Below are positions 2,434-12,677 of a stretch of 17,543 bases of DNA, in pieces. This DNA is from a virus, in UHGV virus genome UHGV-0153102. The stretch is one strand, 5' to 3'. The notes beneath the pieces were generated by a model. That model did no database searches. It saw only the letters and a list, made by a program, of their open reading frames with translations, and had not been told where the DNA came from. The translations under genes were made by a program, and so were the position numbers. How positions within the stretch are numbered: the first letter of the stretch is position 1; every line of letters begins with the position of its first letter.

Positions 2434-4521
2434 ATGTTTGCTTCAGTCAAAGAACTGGTTGGATTACCGGGGATGCCGGGAACGGAGCAAGGCGTTCGCT
2501 ATTCAATCAGGAAGTATGCAACCAGCGAAACCAGCAGACGCCGCAAGAAAGGCGCTAAAGGTTTTGAATACAGCATTGACTGTTTACCTGAAGTGACACA
2601 GCAGGCATTACGCGAACGTTATGCCCTGCAACTGATGACGCAAAAAGCCGATGAATCACCGGCTCCGGTGGTGACAAAGGCCAGACGCTCGTCTGCCGTG
2701 GTTGATGCGGTGGAGGCATATCGCGGATCACCACAACTGATGGTCGAACGCCTCAATGCCCTGACTGAAAACCAGCGCCAGGTGGCAGACGCACGCATTG
2801 CGATCGTCAGTGAGGTGCTGAAATTCACGCAACAACCCGGTTTCAGCTGCGCTAAAGCTATCCGGTTCATCGTTGACCGCCTGTCACACTCGCAACTGGA
2901 TGAGCGCATTGTGGCAATGGTTGAGATAGCGAACGCCAGAAAGGGAAACAGTCGCGTGTTGAGTGAAATCACGCTGAAACGCTGGATTGCGGCCTTTAAT
3001 AAGGCACAGAACGCTGCTGAACGCCTGCTTTTGCTGGCACCAGGTAAACGCCAGGAAATAAAAGCCGAAGATATTAACTGGTTGCCCGAATTTCTGGCGC
3101 AGTATCGCCAGTCAAACGGCCGACCAATGACCGAGGCTTACGAGGATTTTGTTGCCGAATGGCAGCACCGGCACGCTGATGAGCCTTATATGCTCGATAT
3201 CATGCCGTCTTATGACACCATTCGCCGCGCAATGAAGAAACTGCCGGAAGTGGTGAAACAAAAAGGACGGGTTACCGGCAGTGAATACCGCCAGCTTGAG
3301 GGATTCACGCGCCGCGACTGGTCAAAAATGCCGGTGAATTATGTCTGGATTGGTGACGGTCACGGCATGAAGCTGAAATGCGCGCACCCGGTTCACGGGC
3401 GGCCATTCGCACCGGAAGTGACCTTTGTTATCGACGGTGGCACGCGCTTTGTGGTGGGCTGGAGCCTTGACCTGGCTGAAAATGTTTTCGCCGTAGCCGG
3501 TGCCATACAGCACGGTATTCGCCATCATGGCAAACCGTTTCTGTATTACTCGGATAATGGCTCCGGGGAAACCGCCGACGTCCTGGATAAGGAGATTGTG
3601 GGGATACTGCCACGACTGGGGATTAATCACCCGACAGGGATTGCCGGTAATCCGCAGGGACGGGGCATTATCGAACGGCTTAACCGCACATTACCGATGC
3701 GCATAGCCCGTAAATACCGCACCTATTTCGGGAAAGGAGCAGATCGCGAGACGTTACGTAAAACCAACCGCGATTTACGCTCGGCATTCAGTGCCCTGCA
3801 ACAGGGCAAACGGCTGAACGCCCGGCAGCAGTCAGCGATGCGTGATTTACCGTCCTGGTCTGAACTGATTGATGCCATTCGTGACGGTGTTGAGTGGTAC
3901 AACAACCGGCCGCACGATGAATTACCCATGAAGCCGAACGGTAAACATTACAGCCCGGCGGAGTTCAGAAAAAAACGCCTGGCGGAAGAGGACACGGAAA
4001 TTGAATGGCTGTCCGATGTTGAACTGCGGGATATGTTCCGGCCGATGGTGGAGCGCCCTGTAAGACGCTGTGAAATACGCTGGCTGAATAATATTTACTA
4101 CGCGCCCGAGCTGCGTGACGAGCATGGCCGTAAGGTACTTATCAGCTATGACATTCATGATGCCGAACGAATTACCGTGCGCCGCCCGGATGGCAGCGTG
4201 ATTTGCGAGGCGGTATGGGACGGCAATAAACGCGAAGCCTTCCCTGTCAGCGCGGAATACTACAAACAGCAGCAGCGCCTTAAAGGCATGCGTAAACGCG
4301 CAGAGGAAAAAATCCGTGATGCCGAGGATGAGGTTGTCAACGTGCTGGAGCACAAGCCGCAGGAGCCCTGGCTGGAAAACATATACCGCCCTGTGGGTAA
4401 TACGGTGACCGTTCAGCAACCGGTCGCTGACGATGAACCTGATGAAGAATACGAGCGTAATTTCCAGCGGGGATTGCAGTTGCTCGAAGCGAAATTAAAA
4501 GAAAGTGATCCGCTGGCCTGA
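2434..4521 (+). CDS. Mu-type DDE transposase (MuA homolog)
   Basis: 695 aa. N-terminal Mu-type DNA-binding domain (LVGLPGMPGTEQGV...GAKGFEY). Central DDE core (WIGDGHGMKL...YYSDNGSGE). Start lies 2 nt after the ner stop. Confidence 0.9.
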   Translation: MFASVKELVGLPGMPGTEQGVRYSIRKYATSETSRRRKKGAKGFEYSIDCLPEVTQQALRERYALQLMTQKADESPAPVVTKARRSSAVVDAVEAYRGSPQLMVERLNALTENQRQVADARIAIVSEVLKFTQQPGFSCAKAIRFIVDRLSHSQLDERIVAMVEIANARKGNSRVLSEITLKRWIAAFNKAQNAAERLLLLAPGKRQEIKAEDINWLPEFLAQYRQSNGRPMTEAYEDFVAEWQHRHADEPYMLDIMPSYDTIRRAMKKLPEVVKQKGRVTGSEYRQLEGFTRRDWSKMPVNYVWIGDGHGMKLKCAHPVHGRPFAPEVTFVIDGGTRFVVGWSLDLAENVFAVAGAIQHGIRHHGKPFLYYSDNGSGETADVLDKEIVGILPRLGINHPTGIAGNPQGRGIIERLNRTLPMRIARKYRTYFGKGADRETLRKTNRDLRSAFSALQQGKRLNARQQSAMRDLPSWSELIDAIRDGVEWYNNRPHDELPMKPNGKHYSPAEFRKKRLAEEDTEIEWLSDVELRDMFRPMVERPVRRCEIRWLNNIYYAPELRDEHGRKVLISYDIHDAERITVRRPDGSVICEAVWDGNKREAFPVSAEYYKQQQRLKGMRKRAEEKIRDAEDEVVNVLEHKPQEPWLENIYRPVGNTVTVQQPVADDEPDEEYERNFQRGLQLLEAKLKESDPLA

Positions 4522-5760: not shown

Positions 5761-5772
5761 ATGAGGTGTTAT

Positions 5773-6027
5773 ATGAATATGCAATCCTGCGGTAACAAAA
5801 TGAATTTATTCGACTCCCTGAACAGCGCGCGCCGTCTGACCGAACTTGCCGGTGCGGTACTGGAACGCAGTAAGCGCTATCCGCAACGTTTTGCACTGAA
5901 AACCACGCCGCCGGTAGGCAACGTGCAGGGAACCGGTGAAATTGAAATCACCATACAGACCAACGGCCTGCGCCGCCGTGTGAAGGCCACCCGCATCAGC
6001 GGCTGCACGGTTTACTGGGAGGTGTGA
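5773..6027 (+). CDS. hypothetical early protein
   Basis: ORF with AGGTG shortly upstream; start is ambiguous between ATG 5761, 5773, 5779 and 5800. Confidence 0.5.
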   Translation: MNMQSCGNKMNLFDSLNSARRLTELAGAVLERSKRYPQRFALKTTPPVGNVQGTGEIEITIQTNGLRRRVKATRISGCTVYWEV

Positions 6028-6888: not shown

Positions 6889-7419
6889 ATGGCAAAACGC
6901 GTTACAAAATTAAAGGCTGTAGCCGAGGCCGCACCGCAGACCCGCGAAGAAGTCAGCCGCGATATCCGCACCCTGGGCGATATTCAGCGAGAGGCGCTGC
7001 GCCTGGAAACGGCGATGAATGATGAAGTGGCAGAAATCACCGCCCGTTATACGCCGCAGATTGAAAATCTTAAAAAGCAAATCAAAGTGCTTTTTAAAGG
7101 GATTCAGGACTGGTGTAAAACCAACCGTGATGAGCTGACGAACGGCGGCAAAACCAAAACTGCCAATCTGACCACCGGAACGGTGTCATGGCGGCTGGGA
7201 ACGCCATCATGCAGCGTCAGCCGTGATGTGGAAGGTGTGATTGACACGCTGCGCCGTATGGGGCTTGAGCGATTCATCCGCACGAAAGAGGAAGTGAACA
7301 AGGAAGCCGTCCTGGCGGAGCCGGATGCGGTGAAAGGCATTGCCGGTATAAAGGTGAATAAAGGCGCTGAAAGTTTTTATGTCGAGCCTTTTGAACAGGA
7401 TGCCGGACTGAATAAATAA
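6889..7419 (+). CDS. gam: host-nuclease inhibitor protein Gam (Mu Gam-like, DNA-end binding)
   Basis: 176 aa; motifs MAK...DIQREALRLETAMNDEVAEIT...NRDELTNGGKTKTANL...VSWR...RFIRTKEEVNKEA match Mu Gam as recalled; AAGGA RBS upstream. Confidence 0.85.
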   Translation: MAKRVTKLKAVAEAAPQTREEVSRDIRTLGDIQREALRLETAMNDEVAEITARYTPQIENLKKQIKVLFKGIQDWCKTNRDELTNGGKTKTANLTTGTVSWRLGTPSCSVSRDVEGVIDTLRRMGLERFIRTKEEVNKEAVLAEPDAVKGIAGIKVNKGAESFYVEPFEQDAGLNK

Positions 7420-7516
7420 CACCGCATTAATTATTTAAATATCACTTCATTTTAATTATGGCGCTCGCGTCAGGGGACTGCTTGCGCCTGAAAGCTGAAA
7501 ATAAGGAATCGGAAAT

Positions 7517-8059
7517 ATGGCATATTTTTATTTCAAATTAGACCGTGTGCAGACAAATAAATATTTCACCAAATATCAACAGGCTGTTTTACCGCTACGC
7601 AACAGTATTCTTCGGACATTACTGAAAAATACAGGCGCTGCCGGATTGCGCTTAAAGCCGTTCGCCATGGACAGAATCAGTGAGTTTTATTTTGCCGGTG
7701 CTCTGCCTGCGGGCTGGCGTAAGCGCGATGATGTGGCTTTTATCGGTGGCGGACAGTGCTTTATAGCCAGACCTGATGAGTCATGCCCTGAAGGACCGGC
7801 GATTGCCGCAATGATTGAAGCCGCTGAACGCGAGTTAAGAAAGCGTCCTGATTTCCTTGTCTGGCTCTGTGAAAAGCTGGGGGTAATGAGAATCCCCTCC
7901 ATGTTTAACACGGACTCCTGGTGGACCCCTTCGTTCTCCCGTGATGCCCTGTGCGTGGTGTTTAAAGTGGGCGCTTATGGCAGGGAAATAAACGGATGTA
8001 TTCCTGAAGAATGCCAGGAAATTAAACATTCTGAATATGTGGCGCTGACGGAGGAATAA
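7517..8059 (+). CDS. hypothetical protein (accessory early block)
   Basis: 180-aa ORF with AAGGA RBS, following a 97-bp AT-rich spacer; no family recognised. Confidence 0.6.
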   Translation: MAYFYFKLDRVQTNKYFTKYQQAVLPLRNSILRTLLKNTGAAGLRLKPFAMDRISEFYFAGALPAGWRKRDDVAFIGGGQCFIARPDESCPEGPAIAAMIEAAERELRKRPDFLVWLCEKLGVMRIPSMFNTDSWWTPSFSRDALCVVFKVGAYGREINGCIPEECQEIKHSEYVALTEE

Positions 8060-8062
8060 TTC

Positions 8063-8596
8063 ATGATTGATGCAAAAGTGCTTGAAGGGGTTAAAAACTG
8101 GCTGCGTTTTTCTGGCCGTCTGACCAGTCGTTCTCTGGCAGAAAAAATGAATATGCCGCTATCCTCCATGGTTTATTTTCTGCGTGATGCGGTTGATGCC
8201 GGGGTGCTGACGGAATGTAACGGTTTTTATGATATTCCGCGTCCCCGCCCGGTGCAGCCGATTCGTCGCAAATGCAGACAGGAATCTGCGGCTGATGATG
8301 TTCAGTGGTGCAGCTTCAGAAAATCCCTGCCATGGATTGAGGGGCATGATATTCCGTCGATGGCGTGGGAATTTGCTCAGGGCGTTCTGACCTGTGAAAC
8401 CGTTTATGTGGTGGCTGAAGTTGATGAGCAGGCCATGAAAGAAGGCGTGCCCCAGTTTGTGATGGCGTATATCGACATTCGCCTGGGTGTCATTATCTGC
8501 GGTTTAAGCGGCTGGAATATCACCGAACATGTTCTGCGTTACCTGATTGTTGACCGGACGGCTGCGCCTGCCGGGATATCTGCGGAGGTGGCGTAA
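8063..8596 (+). CDS. hypothetical protein, possible N-terminal winged-helix
   Basis: 177-aa ORF with GGAGGA RBS; N-terminus LTSRSLAEKMNMPLSSMVYFLRDAVDAGVL is HTH-like. Confidence 0.6.
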   Translation: MIDAKVLEGVKNWLRFSGRLTSRSLAEKMNMPLSSMVYFLRDAVDAGVLTECNGFYDIPRPRPVQPIRRKCRQESAADDVQWCSFRKSLPWIEGHDIPSMAWEFAQGVLTCETVYVVAEVDEQAMKEGVPQFVMAYIDIRLGVIICGLSGWNITEHVLRYLIVDRTAAPAGISAEVA

Positions 8597-9111
8597 TGTT
8601 CTTTAAAACATCAAACCCTTCCGCGCTGGCTGCGTGGCAAAAATACCAGCAGGACTGCCAGACGGTAAAAGATGAGGCGAAACGCCTTGAGGCCGTGCTG
8701 AATGTTGCGTGCCGGTCGGTATTTGAATTCAGTATCAGTGGTTTTTGTTTTAAGGGACTGCGTTTTACGGAGGACAAATATCCTTTTCATCGCGACTTAT
8801 GGCGAAAACCGACTGCGTCGAATGGCTGGAGCTGCACACCGCGCACATCACGTATCCCTAAAACCCTGCGTGTTGCCTCTGATGAACTGAACAGTCTGTG
8901 GCGTGAATATTCACCCGTCACGTATGCCAGAACCGATGCGCTGTTGTTCTGGCTGGGTATTGATTTCTCGGCAATCCTGTTTGGCCCTGTGAAGTGGTTC
9001 TGCGTTGACGATGTGATTTACCTTCAGTGCGGCGTAAAACCCGCAAAACAGAAAATGACCGAAATTCTGTCTGATGAGTTTTATGCTGCCGAAAAGCGAG
9101 TCAGGGGGTGA
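8596..9111 (+). CDS. hypothetical protein
   Basis: 171-aa ORF; start overlaps the previous stop (TAATG). Confidence 0.6.
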   Translation: MFFKTSNPSALAAWQKYQQDCQTVKDEAKRLEAVLNVACRSVFEFSISGFCFKGLRFTEDKYPFHRDLWRKPTASNGWSCTPRTSRIPKTLRVASDELNSLWREYSPVTYARTDALLFWLGIDFSAILFGPVKWFCVDDVIYLQCGVKPAKQKMTEILSDEFYAAEKRVRG

Positions 9112-9114
9112 TGT

Positions 9115-9666
9115 ATGATGATTTTACAACACATGGGGCGAAAAGGTCGTACACCCGCTCATGTCCGCGCGTGGACACCTGAAGAAGATGCGCTACTGAT
9201 TGCGCTTTATTCATCCACCCCGGTTAAGGATATTGCTGCCAGAATAAAAAGAACTGTCTGGGCTGTATATAACCGGACTGGTGTATTGCGCAGTTCATAC
9301 CCGGAGTTACTGAAATATAAACACCCAAGATTTACACCTGATGAAGATAAGTTTATTCGAAAAAATGCCAGAACAATGACCTGCCAGCAAATGGGAGAAT
9401 ATCTCGGACGTAATAAAGATTCTGTCAGATGTCGGGCAGGAATGATTGGTGCTGGATTAACAAAGTGCGGAGAGTTACGCCCCGGCACGCGCATATCTGA
9501 TGATGATGTACGTCTTATACGTGCGCTGCGTGATTCCGATTACCCACGCCGTCTGTCATTCCGGGAAATTGGCGAAAAGTTTGGAATATCTGAACATTCT
9601 GCTCACGCAGTTTATTACCGTCGCCGGACTGCCGAGGACGCTGTATTACGGGAGTTAACGCCATGA
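9115..9666 (+). CDS. hypothetical protein with three internal HTH-like repeats (Myb/SANT-like pattern)
   Basis: Three repeated segments start WTPEEDALLIALY..., FTPDEDKFIRKN... and ISDDDVRLIRALR.... Confidence 0.6.
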   Translation: MMILQHMGRKGRTPAHVRAWTPEEDALLIALYSSTPVKDIAARIKRTVWAVYNRTGVLRSSYPELLKYKHPRFTPDEDKFIRKNARTMTCQQMGEYLGRNKDSVRCRAGMIGAGLTKCGELRPGTRISDDDVRLIRALRDSDYPRRLSFREIGEKFGISEHSAHAVYYRRRTAEDAVLRELTP

Positions 9667-9992
9667 TAACGACCTTATTTGTTGAATCAGATGAACCTCT
9701 TGTGTGTGCCGCCGGAATGCCGCTCTGTGGCGGAACGCTGACCGGTGTTTATTTCGGGGATTTACGCGGTTATCCCTGGCATTCACTGAATGATGCTTTC
9801 CCACCTGATATGGAGGCTGTCGTGCTGATTGTTCAGTATGGTCACCGTCAGGAGCTGCGCATCGGCCATATGGGGTATGAAGGCTTTTTTGTTGATGAAG
9901 AAACCGGAGCCTGCCTTGAAGATGAAGACGGACAGGTGACGCACTGGTGTCATATTTCGGCTTTACCGGAATTACGGGAGGTGAATGCGTGA
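9663..9992 (+). CDS. hypothetical phage protein, possibly DUF551-like
   Basis: 109 aa; start overlaps the previous stop (ATGA). C-terminal VTHWCHISALPELRE resembles the VTHW..LPE ending recalled for DUF551 proteins. Confidence 0.5.
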   Translation: MITTLFVESDEPLVCAAGMPLCGGTLTGVYFGDLRGYPWHSLNDAFPPDMEAVVLIVQYGHRQELRIGHMGYEGFFVDEETGACLEDEDGQVTHWCHISALPELREVNA

Positions 9993-10339
9993 GAAGTTAT
10001 ATTGATAATGAAAAGCTGGAGACAATAAGCGACTGTCTTAGCTTGCTGGCAAAAATCAAAGAAACTATTGAAGAGATTAAATTTCAGCTTGAATACGCAC
10101 CATGTGGCGATGATGCATGGCGTAATGCTGCCAGAAAAGCACTGGCTGTCTTTCAGAAACAACGCCGGGCTGTTGAATACCGCCTTGCTGTATTGCGCCA
10201 GGAGGAAAAGGAAAGAAATATAAGACGTCATGAACGCGTTAATGACTTCCTTGTTCGTGAATTAAAAGGGCGCGTGCCGGAGTCGGTATTTTTTGAATGT
10301 GAGGCTATAGCCCGTAGCAAAGCACTGGAAACAGATTAA
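9989..10339 (+). CDS. hypothetical protein, predicted helical/coiled-coil
   Basis: GTG at 9989 overlaps the preceding stop (GTGA) and has GGGAGG upstream. The ORF-track start at 9947 would overlap the upstream gene by 46 nt. Confidence 0.5.
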   Translation: MRSYIDNEKLETISDCLSLLAKIKETIEEIKFQLEYAPCGDDAWRNAARKALAVFQKQRRAVEYRLAVLRQEEKERNIRRHERVNDFLVRELKGRVPESVFFECEAIARSKALETD

Positions 10340-10354
10340 GCAGGCAGGTGAATA

Positions 10355-10663
10355 ATGAGTATTGAATTAAGATCGTCTTATGAATATCGCAAAATCCTTA
10401 TCGCCGGAGGCATGAAACCGGAAGATGCAGAGAAATTCGTTTCTTTTATGGATAAAGAATGTGACAAGCGGGATATGCCAGAAATTATTATGGATGACAT
10501 GATTCTGGATTCAGCCGTGGCGTTAAGTCCGTTATGGATTGTGCATACTCTTGCGGAAATAGCTAAAAGAAGTGACAAGCAGGCGGCTGTCGCCGCCCTG
10601 CGATTACTGGCTGAATTAAGTTGTTCAGTCAATCCCAATACGTTCTTTGACGAACCTGGTTAA
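10355..10663 (+). CDS. hypothetical protein
   Basis: 102-aa ORF with AGGTGA RBS; its 3' end overlaps the minus-strand moron by 39 nt. Confidence 0.55.
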   Translation: MSIELRSSYEYRKILIAGGMKPEDAEKFVSFMDKECDKRDMPEIIMDDMILDSAVALSPLWIVHTLAEIAKRSDKQAAVAALRLLAELSCSVNPNTFFDEPG

Positions 10664-11035
10664 CATTGATTTGGTAACTTCTTTAATTAGATCAAATGGT
10701 GCGTCTGTAAACTCCTTTTTGATTCTTTCAAGGATTGGTTTTTTTCTCAGGGCGTTAGCTAAATCATGCCCCTGCTGGGTAAGCATAATGGGCGTGTTTC
10801 TGAAACCAACGCCCAGAGAATGGAAAAAGAAACCAATATATTTGGGTGTTTCTGACTGCATATCACCATTAACAATTGAGCCATTATCAGCGAGAAGCAT
10901 AAGATGAAAAACTTTTTTATCCTTTTCCTCTCCTTCTGCCTCAGCCATGCCCAGATCCTGTAGTGTAAGGAAAGGTGTTTCAGCATCCTGAAAAGTTGTG
11001 AGAATACTTAATACTTCATCGTAATCTATTTTCAT
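10625..11035 (-). CDS. opposite-strand AT-rich moron encoding a 136-aa protein of unknown function
   Basis: Only sizeable minus-strand ORF inside the rightward early operon. The surrounding ~400 bp is visibly more AT-rich than the flanking phage DNA. Own RBS (AAAGG) upstream of the ATG at 11033-11035. Confidence 0.65.
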   Translation of the reverse strand: MKIDYDEVLSILTTFQDAETPFLTLQDLGMAEAEGEEKDKKVFHLMLLADNGSIVNGDMQSETPKYIGFFFHSLGVGFRNTPIMLTQQGHDLANALRKKPILERIKKEFTDAPFDLIKEVTKSMLTRFVKERIGID

Positions 11036-11057
11036 ATCGATACCTTTAGTTTTATCC

Positions 11058-11085
11058 GGGCGGCGTTGCCATGCCGCCTGTTGTT
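11058..11085. promoter_or_regulatory. GC hairpin (GGGCGGC / GCCGCC(T), 8-nt loop) followed by TGTTGTT, in the spacer between the moron start and the gemA start
   Basis: Inverted repeat seen directly at 11058-11064 and 11073-11079. Confidence 0.4.
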
Positions 11086-11099
11086 ACGGAGACACGATA

Positions 11100-11612
11100 A
11101 TGAATCGCGCTTCCCTGATTACCTTAATACATGTCGCAAAACGCGATCTACAGCTTGACCATGAGACCTACACATCCGTACTACTGGCAGCCACCGGCAA
11201 ACCCAGTTGCCGGGATATGTCACCGGATGAGTTATCCCGCGTGCTGGATGTTTTCAAAAAACGCGGTTTTAAAGTGCGTCAGAAGCCGGTTAACCGGGCC
11301 TTAAAACCGGGTACGGTGACCGCCAAAATTCGCGCCATCTGGAAGGTGATGCACCGGCAGGGCTTTATCTCTGATGGCGGGGAAACAGCCCTTAACCGCT
11401 GGGTGAAATCGCAGACGGCCGCTCAGAACGGCGGCGAAGGTGTGGCTAACTGGCAGTGGCTGGAACAACACCCCGCGCTGGCCTCTGATGTGCTGGAGCG
11501 TCTCAAACGCTGGCACCGCCGCAAGATGCTGGATGTGCTGGGGATGCCAGCGCGTACAGTGATGAGTTATGAGCGCGTTTGCAGGCTGTATGAAGAATCC
11601 TCCCCCTTTTAA
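11100..11612 (+). CDS. gemA: GemA-like protein (Mu gp16 family)
   Basis: 170 aa; N-terminus MNRASLITLIHVAKRDLQLD...ATGKPSCRDMSPDEL resembles Mu GemA as recalled; lies just upstream of mor. Confidence 0.75.
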   Translation: MNRASLITLIHVAKRDLQLDHETYTSVLLAATGKPSCRDMSPDELSRVLDVFKKRGFKVRQKPVNRALKPGTVTAKIRAIWKVMHRQGFISDGGETALNRWVKSQTAAQNGGEGVANWQWLEQHPALASDVLERLKRWHRRKMLDVLGMPARTVMSYERVCRLYEESSPF

Positions 11613-11682: not shown

Positions 11683-12105
11683 ATGGCTGAAACACAGATG
11701 AGCATGTTTGGTGACAGCGAACAGCTGCACGCGCTGATTGACCGTCTGGATGATATTCCTGATGATGAGCTGAAAAAGAACTGGCCCGGCACGCTGCGGG
11801 ACCTGGTTGATGTGATCAGTGCTGAACTGCACCGTCAGGGGATTGAACCTGCTCAGGCGGGAATGCTTGCCCGTAAGGTTGCAGCCGCACAGGCCGGGTA
11901 CATGGGCGGGCGTGGTTATTATCTCCCGGTCGGTGAATCCCTTTTCACCGAACTGCGCAATAATGAAATTTTTTCCCGCTGGAGCCAGGGCGAAAAAATT
12001 GAAACCCTGCGCCGCCACTACCAGATGTCAGAGACGCAGATTTACTCCGTTATCCGCAACCAGCGTCGCCTGCATCAGGAACGCACGCAGCCACGGCTTT
12101 TCTGA
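11683..12105 (+). CDS. mor: Mor/C-family transcriptional activator (single copy)
   Basis: 140 aa; acidic N-terminus; C-terminal HTH region ETLRRHYQMSETQIYSVIRNQRRL resembles Mu Mor/C; GGAGG RBS upstream. Confidence 0.75.
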   Translation: MAETQMSMFGDSEQLHALIDRLDDIPDDELKKNWPGTLRDLVDVISAELHRQGIEPAQAGMLARKVAAAQAGYMGGRGYYLPVGESLFTELRNNEIFSRWSQGEKIETLRRHYQMSETQIYSVIRNQRRLHQERTQPRLF

Positions 12106-12176: not shown

Positions 12177-12677
12177 ATGCCAAAACTCCCCGCACCCCTG
12201 CGTAAAAAGCTGATTGCCCTTGTTCTGGCCGGAGCCGGGACGTTCACCATTGCCACGCACTACACCGGCTACTGGGAAGGGAAAGAAAACACCACGTACA
12301 TTGATCCCACCGGCACCCCCACCATCTGTTACGGCCATACCGGCCCGGATGTGAAACCGGGGATGACAAAAACTGATGAAGAGTGTCTGGAGCTGCTGGA
12401 AAAGGACATGAAATGGGCCTTTGCGGCTATCGATCGTCATGTTCAGGTGCCGCTTACCCGTGGTCAGACGGTGGCGCTGGCCTCCTGGATTTTCTGGGCC
12501 GGTGAAACGAACTTTCGCAACTCCACGCTCCTGCGCCTTATCAATGCCGGGCAGATGCCCGCGTCCTGTAAGCAGTATATCCGCTGGATTTATTCAAAGG
12601 GGGTAAAACTCCCCGGTCTTGAGGCCCGCCGTTCGGCGGATGAATGGTTATGTCGTTACGATTTGCCGAAAGTCTGA
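12177..12677 (+). CDS. lys: SAR endolysin (phage lysozyme with N-terminal signal-anchor-release segment)
   Basis: 166 aa; N-terminus MPKLPAPLRKKLIALVLAGAGTFTIA is a weakly hydrophobic SAR-like segment; downstream motifs ICYGHTGPD and WIFWAGETNFRNSTLLRLINAG resemble Mu Lys. Confidence 0.85.
   Translation: MPKLPAPLRKKLIALVLAGAGTFTIATHYTGYWEGKENTTYIDPTGTPTICYGHTGPDVKPGMTKTDEECLELLEKDMKWAFAAIDRHVQVPLTRGQTVALASWIFWAGETNFRNSTLLRLINAGQMPASCKQYIRWIYSKGVKLPGLEARRSADEWLCRYDLPKV

Follow-up and report, generated by a model that had tools for sequence, protein, structure and literature searches.

The gene block between gam and gemA of a Mu-like phage genome probably represents the distal half of the semi-essential early region, with a conserved gp11–gp12 pair and exchangeable cassettes

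The closest described counterpart of the locus analysed here is the semi-essential (SE) early region of phage Mu, in which gp11–gp15 (old names E10–E15) lie between gam and gemA as a series of small abutting ORFs. To our knowledge, no gene-level functional assignments have been made for the Mu SE region in about forty years. Two pieces of background bear on this part of the genome: Gam is a RecBCD blocker and thus a host-nuclease antagonist, and 'arm' is a Mu early phenotype consisting of a stimulation of Mu replication. The early transcript includes the SE region, whose deletion restores the viability of infected cells, and a Mu phage with this deletion has been described (PMC3325207). The functions of the SE-region genes have been called 'largely unknown' (PMC3820752), and the region is also treated as largely uncharacterised elsewhere (PMC8705779, PMC3325207). 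In the Mu-like Pseudomonas phage JBD30, Gam and GemA have been implicated in an interplay with Gabija, a defence system (PMC12407980). No functional study emerged from a literature search on gp11, gp12, DUF5420, PF26885, DUF2513 and 'arm'.

A second described relative is the Shigella phage SfMu, whose early region carries gp11 (annotated 'DUF5420'), gp12, gp13, gp14 and gp15. A third group are Mu-like E. coli prophages, known from STEC genomes and as insertions in Stx-converting phages. Of 5426 complete E. coli genomes, 232 carry the block, at 90–99% nucleotide identity, and it is also present in two Stx phage records (LC727881 and LC727895), annotated there as inserted Mu-like phage.

The window, which is the whole analysed stretch of 17,543 nucleotides from the virus genome UHGV-0153102, showed the gene order ner, A, B, small ORFs, gam, the block, gemA, mor, and lys along the + strand. 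This order was collinear with Mu from ner to mor, in agreement with an earlier sequence-only reading that had assigned the block to a Mu-like semi-essential early region between gam and gemA. The upstream edge was gam (6889–7419, + strand), encoding a Mu Gam/Ku-like DNA-end-binding protein that matched PF07352 (E = 7e-42) and was 57% identical to Mu Gam, and the downstream edge was gemA (gp16 family; 11100–11612, + strand), whose product matched PF06252 (E = 2.8e-28) with 45% identity to Mu GemA. The block shares with Mu gp11–gp15 its position between gam and gemA, its strand and, from its layout, the early operon, and it too consists of small abutting ORFs.

Seven ORFs on the + strand make up the block, and their coordinates and junctions were as the sequence-only reading had given them. 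ORF1 (7517–8059; 180 aa) was joined to ORF2 (8063–8596) by TAA + 3 nt + ATG, ORF2 to ORF3 (8596–9111) by TAATG with a 1-nt overlap, ORF3 to ORF4 (9115–9666; 183 aa) by TGA + 3 nt + ATG, ORF4 to ORF5 (9663–9992; 109 aa) by ATGA with a 4-nt overlap, ORF5 to ORF6 (9989–10339; 116 aa) by GTGA, also with a 4-nt overlap, and ORF6 to ORF7 (10355–10663; 102 aa) by a spacer of 15 nt. The start of ORF6 at 9989 was a GTG downstream of GGGAGGTGA, as also annotated by PGAP, which called the same seven CDS in the chromosome of E. coli JKHS016, a sequence 98.8% identical to the window lineage's. By inspection, a GGAGG/AGGA-type Shine-Dalgarno sequence preceded every one of the seven starts, within the preceding gene. 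A consensus scan detected promoter-like and terminator-like sites in the block in no excess over shuffled sequence, including a terminator-like hairpin within ORF6 at 10274–10289, and Rfam gave no RNA family anywhere in the window.

Profile searches, which the sequence-only reading had proposed for each protein, placed all seven in PHROG families (E = 1e-38 to 1e-101), and were less informative on function: six of these families have no assigned function, an NCBIfam scan of all block proteins gave nothing significant, and PDB sequence searches yielded only chance-level or designed-protein matches for ORF2, ORF4, ORF7 and the ORF1 profile, and designed coiled coils only (E ≥ 0.002) for ORF6. 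The dN/dS values, from comparisons with a coverage filter that cover ORFs 1–6 and not ORF7, ranged from 0.08 to 0.34 and indicated purifying selection on these six genes. Because of the strong PHROG matches of all seven proteins and these dN/dS values of ORFs 1–6, the seven ORFs are more than chance frames.

The sequence-only reading had recognised no Mu protein among the products; two of them turned out to be homologues of Mu proteins. ORF2 was 66% identical to Mu gp11 over 177 aa, with matching synteny, and its score with Gp11_C (PF25754) was 139.1 bits, the gathering cut-off being 27. It consisted of a winged-helix N-domain, a disordered linker, and a beta-rich Gp11_C domain in a structure model of low overall confidence (pLDDT 64). 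ORF3, a basic protein (pI 9.0), showed 54% identity with Mu gp12 over 169 aa (E = 3e-68) and had an alpha/beta fold without a solved relative; the Gp12 family PF26885 was precomputed on 95%-identical homologues at the matching locus position. The 1-nt overlap between these genes is shared with the Mu homologues and was retained in 51 of 69 gp11/gp12 junctions, and an apparent 40-nt overlap in 15 others was attributed to the longest-ORF rule, which picks an upstream start. The pair was adjacent and invariant in all 47 related loci. Among GTDB species representatives, a scan for gp12 found a single locus, in Citrobacter braakii, and the family is therefore narrow. A paralogous relationship between ORF1 and gp12 was also considered and rejected (hhalign probability 0.12%, E = 0.46).

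Two further genes had homologues in SfMu. Like the window, SfMu carries one gene more, its gp11, downstream of gam and ahead of the Mu-gp11 homologue; ORF1 occupied this position and was 41% identical to the SfMu gp11 product over 180 aa (E = 2e-45). ORF1 matched phrog_2260 (E = 2.4e-73) and had a dN/dS of 0.34; the name 'DUF5420' is a RefSeq label, and the Pfam copy used gave no DUF5420 match even for SfMu gp11 itself. In some related prophages ORF1 was missing or substituted by a divergent allele. ORF7, an acidic protein (net charge −6), was homologous to SfMu gp14 (36% identity, E = 2e-13) and matched phrog_1988 (E = 1.3e-38).

After gp12, the contents of the three regions diverged. Mu continues with gp13 (a 60-aa, Cys-rich, zinc-ribbon-like protein), gp14 and gp15, and the window with ORF4, ORF5, ORF6 and ORF7; SfMu lacks ORF4, ORF5 and ORF6 and retains Mu13 and Mu14. 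ORF4 was a very basic protein (pI 10, net charge +13) that matched phrog_323, 'transcriptional regulator' (E = 5.8e-52). As a whole protein it scored 25.2 bits against Pfam Myb_DNA-binding (cut-off 24.4), with no single stretch passing, and HTH_AsnC and HTH_10 were both under the Pfam cut-off. Its tblastn matches were the DNA-binding portions of phage HNH and methylase genes, and three candidate units within it self-aligned weakly, with one invariant column. From its sequence, ORF4 thus apparently comprises three tandem Myb/SANT- or homeodomain-like HTH units. It occurred in two allelic forms, at approximately 97–100% and 70–75% identity.

ORF5 was strongly acidic (pI 4.3, net charge −14) and matched phrog_6925 (E = 3.5e-51). 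It represented an orphan family with the C-terminal motif VTHW..P..P, and an exhaustive HMMER search found only 16 representatives among 1.84 billion and no informative relative. It was the most conserved protein in the block, with the lowest dN/dS of ORFs 1–6 (0.08) and 81–85% identity in lineages in which gp11 and gp12 were at 59–68%. The motif resembles DUF551, which we regard as a lead only; assignment of ORF5 to DUF551 (PF04448) was rejected, since the window protein gave no match and only two of six family members did so, with a best E of 0.025. ORF6 was probably helical or coiled-coil, matched phrog_6158 (E = 3.1e-54) and had a dN/dS of 0.14.

The spacer between gam and ORF1 contained a conserved non-coding element (7450–7492, + strand) of the form TTTTAATTAT-GGCGC-N19-GCGCC-TGAA. 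It was near-invariant across the window lineage, Mu and SfMu, and was recognisable also in a distant locus (L067); in the window as in Mu it lies in a spacer of approximately 97–98 nt after gam. The hairpin was not significantly stable as an RNA fold (z = −1.45) and was not followed by a T-run, and the element was not detected by the promoter/terminator consensus scan. It could mark separate regulation and, like the terminator-like hairpin within ORF6, was counted against a single early transcript.

At the other end of the block, a gene of 136 aa lay on the − strand between ORF7 and gemA (10625–11035), antisense to ORF7 and overlapping its final 39 nt; it had been missed by the sequence-only reading. 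Its product matched PF10711 under the gathering cut-off (E = 6.6e-5) and phrog_585 (E = 7e-18), and PGAP named it 'DUF2513 domain-containing protein'. The cassette had a low GC content of 0.42 and was a rare insertion; among the 5426 complete E. coli genomes, only 7 had it. In alignments, the ORF7 C-terminus past about residue 83 was unlike the alleles of prophages without this gene. The window thus differs from Mu in having ORF1 ahead of gp11 and the antisense gene ahead of gemA, where SfMu has a different small antisense ORF. Block genes are translationally abutted in an operon, unlike autonomous morons, and the DUF2513-like gene is the sole part of the locus that looks like one.

Comparison of the 47 related loci revealed 22 gene orders, in which the gp11–gp12 pair was the sole constant. 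The non-core genes were gained and lost; most cassette breakpoints coincided with a gene junction or lay no more than about 25 nt from one, and the abutting geometry was preserved in all cassette combinations. By gene content, prophage sequences naturally without ORF1, ORF4, ORF5, ORF6, ORF7 or the DUF2513-like gene occur, and gp11–gp12 was never missing. In complete E. coli genomes, the core was present in 232 of 5426, ORF1 in 214 of these 232, and ORF5–6 in 144 of 5426; the exact set of the window (ORF1, ORF4–7 and DUF2513) was rare among Mu-like E. coli prophages.

These results suggested that a Mu-like E. coli prophage rather probably carries, in this block, the distal half of its SE early region, composed of conserved gp11–gp12 and swappable accessory cassettes and not one system. 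The sequence-only reading had taken the seven genes for a possible undescribed module. This view did not hold, because four of the seven genes have Mu or SfMu homologues, all seven proteins belong to PHROG families, two Pfam families are named after Mu gp11 and gp12, and the cassettes are exchanged independently around the gp11–gp12 pair. Its statement that function is not assignable from sequence remained true also with a predicted fold, and the literature concurs (PMC3820752, PMC8705779, PMC3325207). By analogy with Mu, with which the layout is collinear, the block would most likely be transcribed within a long early transcript, with which the promoter-like and terminator-like sites, in no excess over shuffled sequence, agree indirectly. 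Its genes may be translated by coupling or re-initiation, as the preceding gene contains a separate Shine-Dalgarno sequence for every start. The constant adjacency and overlap of the genes suggests that gp11 and gp12 act jointly, probably on nucleic acid. The winged-helix and beta-rich gp11 and the basic gp12 would be partners that aid phage DNA transactions or redirect those of the host. ORF1, the putatively DNA-binding Myb/HTH-like ORF4, ORF5, ORF6 and ORF7 would be dispensable cassettes swapped at or near gene boundaries, each most likely acting alone as a host-modulating accessory factor. As a tentative extension of this reading, a gp11–gp12 nucleic-acid-binding complex might underlie an unassigned Mu early phenotype, for which 'arm' is one candidate, and at least one cassette might inhibit a host defence or DNA-repair factor, with ORF5 as the best candidate.

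A different explanation is that the block is an anti-defence island, in which at least one of ORF1, ORF5, ORF6 and ORF7 is expressed early and blocks host immunity (restriction, Gabija, RecBCD-linked or abortive infection systems). The cassettes are present or absent between prophages of >90% identity, as typically seen in loci with accessory or counter-defence genes, and the block resembles temperate-phage moron and anti-defence islands in having small single-gene cassettes swapped between near-identical phages, often with an HTH protein. The small acidic proteins ORF5 and ORF7, and the position next to Gam, which together with GemA has been linked to Gabija in JBD30 (PMC12407980), are also consistent with such a role. 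Against this, the searches made here revealed no relationship, in sequence or in fold, to known anti-defence proteins, none of the seven PHROG families fell in the 'host takeover' category, and PADLOC, which holds defence models only, gave no match except an insignificant one of ORF7 to PDC-S72 (E = 0.068). In addition, the gp11–gp12 core is invariant and not variable, and the low dN/dS values, lowest in ORF5, gave no sign of arms-race diversification. The Acr loci of Pseudomonas Mu-like phages are late-region loci and are not part of the early operon. Nothing specific thus spoke for the counter-defence role that the sequence-only reading had put forward, and we consider an anti-defence island doubtful, with such a role possible for individual cassettes.

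Less probable, and in our view unlikely, is that the genes regulate the phage and not the host, with gp11 and ORF4 tuning the early-to-middle switch, transpososome activity or lysogeny. The winged-helix fold of gp11, the HTH/Myb signals of ORF4 and its PHROG 'transcription regulation' family, and the location of the genes just upstream of gemA and mor point in this direction; ORF4 is, however, absent from Mu, SfMu and several related prophages, and it is therefore not a required regulator. That the ORFs are chance frames or pseudogenes of a defective prophage, which the six proteins without assigned function and the several orphans of very narrow distribution might suggest, was effectively refuted by the dN/dS values of ORFs 1–6 and by the conservation of ORF lengths, start contexts and junctions between lineages down to about 50% identity, together with the strong PHROG matches and the occurrence of the exact ORF5 protein in thousands of assemblies.

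The result is a map and not a discovery: it corrects the idea of seven genes as a novel unit and sets the invariant gp11–gp12 core apart from the optional cassettes ORF1, ORF4–7 and DUF2513. The core merits a targeted experiment in Mu, and the cassettes are suited to screening one by one. The SE region is of relevance to host viability in Mu (PMC3325207) and adjoins Gam, which is now linked to an interplay with defence systems.

The window is an E. coli prophage of the Mu-like, transposable type. The region at 7400–11100 aligned over its full length with the chromosome of E. coli JKHS016 at 98.8% identity. Of 5426 complete E. coli genomes, 232 contained related sequence (90–99% identity), which also occurred in two Stx-phage records, where it is labelled as an inserted Mu-like phage. 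The plus-strand gene order was ner, A, B, five small ORFs, gam (6889–7419; PF07352, E = 7e-42), the block of seven ORFs, gemA (11100–11612; PF06252, E = 2.8e-28), a Mor/C-family activator, and lysozyme; a repressor gene lay upstream in divergent orientation. In Mu, mor and C are distinct genes separated by gp18–gp20, whereas the prophage had a single activator gene in this region (11683–12105), resembling Mu C (40%) more than Mu Mor (28%) and followed directly by the lysozyme gene (12177–12677). The ORF at 5761–6027 is probably the kil equivalent, judging from Pfam PF26843 (Kil_protein) on the 84-aa product of identical loci in public assemblies and from weak BLASTP similarity of the product at approximately 5773–6027 to Mu Kil (33% over 39 aa).

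The seven ORFs of the block lay exactly where the sequence-only reading had placed them: ORF1 (7517–8059), ORF2 (8063–8596), ORF3 (8596–9111), ORF4 (9115–9666), ORF5 (9663–9992), ORF6 (9989–10339), and ORF7 (10355–10663). The tight junctions were also as described, being in order TAA-TTC-ATG, TAATG, TGA-TGT-ATG, ATGA, GTGA, and a 15-nt spacer, and a Shine-Dalgarno motif was seen by eye before each start, embedded in the 3'-terminal part of the upstream gene. These ORFs were not chance frames; the PGAP annotation of JKHS016 independently called the same seven CDS with identical boundaries, and the PHROG matches had E-values of 1e-38 to 1e-101. The dN/dS values, taken as medians of pairwise values against distinct orthologues, were 0.34, 0.23, 0.17, 0.27, 0.08, and 0.14 for ORF1 to ORF6, respectively, compared with 0.11 for gam and 0.24 for gemA; ORF7 was left out because allelic variation at its 3' end meant that no comparison passed the coverage filter. 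All seven genes were thus present as claimed, but an eighth had been missed, a DUF2513-like gene on the minus strand (10625–11035, 136 aa) between ORF7 and gemA.

Direct comparison with the annotated genomes of Mu (AF083977) and SfMu (NC_027382) overturned the statement that none of the proteins matched a Mu protein. ORF2 corresponded to Mu gp11 (66% over 177 aa; PF25754 Gp11_C, E = 6e-41) and ORF3 to Mu gp12 (54% over 169 aa), and homologues of ORF3 carry a precomputed match to PF26885 (Phage_Mu_Gp12), a more recent Pfam family. ORF1 matched SfMu gp11 (41% over 180 aa; "DUF5420 family" in RefSeq), and ORF7 matched SfMu gp14 (36% over 87 aa, E = 2e-13). Counterparts of ORF4, ORF5, and ORF6, which belong to PHROG families 323, 6925, and 6158, respectively, were absent from Mu and SfMu.

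We compared 69 loci encoding a gp12 relative (68 from IMG/VR and one from GTDB) and assigned their ORFs to classes from BLASTP matches to the proteins of the window, Mu, and SfMu. Instead of the undescribed module suggested earlier, the block was a mosaic, with 22 distinct gene orders among the 47 loci spanning gp11 to gemA. gp11 and gp12 were adjacent in all 47; the 1-nt TAATG overlap was kept at 51 of the 69 junctions, and a further 15 had an apparent 40-nt overlap, which we attribute to the longest-ORF rule taking an upstream start. Some loci had ORF1, others lacked it, and in others a divergent allele took its place; ORF4 occurred in two allelic forms (approximately 97–100% or 70–75% identity) or was absent; ORF5 and the DUF2513 gene were each present or absent; and ORF6 and ORF7 were both present, reduced to ORF7, or replaced by Mu13/Mu14-like genes. 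In pairwise nucleotide alignments, most breakpoints (~7534/8055, 9672, 9980, 10341, and 11127) fell at or within approximately 25 nt of gene junctions, and one (~10599) lay within ORF7, towards its 3' end. Whichever cassettes became neighbors, they still abutted or overlapped.

Counts in complete E. coli genomes agreed with this mosaic picture: the gp11–gp12 core was found in 232 of 5426, ORF1 in 214, ORF5–ORF6 in 144 (123 at ≥80% coverage), and the DUF2513 cassette in 7, all at ≥99% identity. The window therefore combines common parts into an eight-gene set that is itself rare. From its genome count and identity, the DUF2513 cassette looks like a recently acquired moron. Its GC content was low (0.42), its gene converged on ORF7 and overlapped the last 39 nt, and the ORF7 C-terminus beside it differed past about residue 83 from that of cassette-free alleles. 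The DUF2513-like gene is possibly expressed in the lysogen.

In prophages lacking ORF1 (window 7517–8062), a mini-ORF (about 14 codons at ~4420–4475 of the related locus L015) started at the ORF1 start-codon position with a similar opening and ended 3 nt before the gp11 start, so an abutting upstream frame still precedes gp11. Further unclassified insertions were seen in the same interval in two other relatives (L004, 5283–5666; L077, 5018–5501). One insertion among relatives, of approximately 385 bp, lay between ORF4 and ORF5, and another carried two additional plus-strand ORFs (65 and 98 aa) replacing the DUF2513 gene; the cassette repertoire thus exceeds the set in the window.

NCBIfam and PADLOC scans of all proteins gave nothing significant. 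ORF4 was basic (pI 10.0, net charge +13) and by eye contained three units in tandem, each about 45 residues long and opening with a (W/F)TP(E/D)ED-type motif; the units aligned only weakly with one another. It just reached the whole-protein cut-off of Pfam Myb_DNA-binding, and the AsnC and HTH_10 models matched unit 3 below cut-off; tblastn located similar units in mycobacteriophage regions labelled as HNH endonuclease or DNA methylase genes. ORF5 (109 residues, pI 4.3, net charge −14) had only 16 representatives in 1.84 billion clusters, a conserved C-terminal VTHW..P..P, and a resemblance to DUF551 that was faint at best. Of the block genes it was the most constrained, with 81–85% identity in a divergent group of loci (L005, from Citrobacter braakii; L048–L051; L065–L072) where gp11 and gp12 showed 59–68%, which points to unusually strong constraint or recent transfer of this orphan acidic protein. 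ORF6 and ORF7 matched only designed coiled-coil or helical-repeat proteins among PDB sequences, with weak E-values, and were taken to be small helical proteins without an informative relative.

A conserved non-coding element of approximately 43 nt (TTTTAATTAT GGCGC N19 GCGCC TGAA) occupied 7450–7492 in the gam–ORF1 spacer. It was near-invariant across the window lineage, Mu, and SfMu, although Gam is just 57% identical to Mu Gam, and was recognizable in a distant relative (L067). The element had a 5-bp GC stem without a T-run, its RNA fold was not significantly stable (z = −1.45), and it had no Rfam match; a role in protein binding or RNA processing is possible.

The region was collinear with the Mu early operon, and promoter-like and terminator-like consensus sites were not enriched over shuffled sequence. 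[quoted passage not shown] On the basis of collinearity, site counts, and this literature, we interpret the block as a set of accessory early-operon genes, which would be translated by coupling. Anti-defence by single cassettes is a less likely reading: in its favor, the cassettes vary in presence, encode small, acidic proteins, and lie near Gam, and in a Mu-like Pseudomonas phage both Gam and GemA are implicated in licensing Gabija targeting (PMC12407980), but it had no homology support and the low dN/dS speaks against arms-race dynamics. A phage-directed regulatory role for gp11 or ORF4 is possible, at a lower probability still; ORF4 is missing from many relatives and hence cannot be a required regulator. 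Under the accessory early-operon reading, we infer that the conserved gp11–gp12 pair probably acts jointly on nucleic acid and that the cassettes would be individually dispensable and host-modulating.

This type of region has been known since classical Mu genetics. Two block genes carry Mu gene names in Pfam, all seven are catalogued in PHROGs, and annotations of this specific prophage exist in hundreds of genomes. The block is not a new system; the sequence-only reading described it correctly, and what it described is an ordinary, still unexplained part of Mu-like phages. What the present analysis adds is that the invariant core can be told apart from the optional cassettes.
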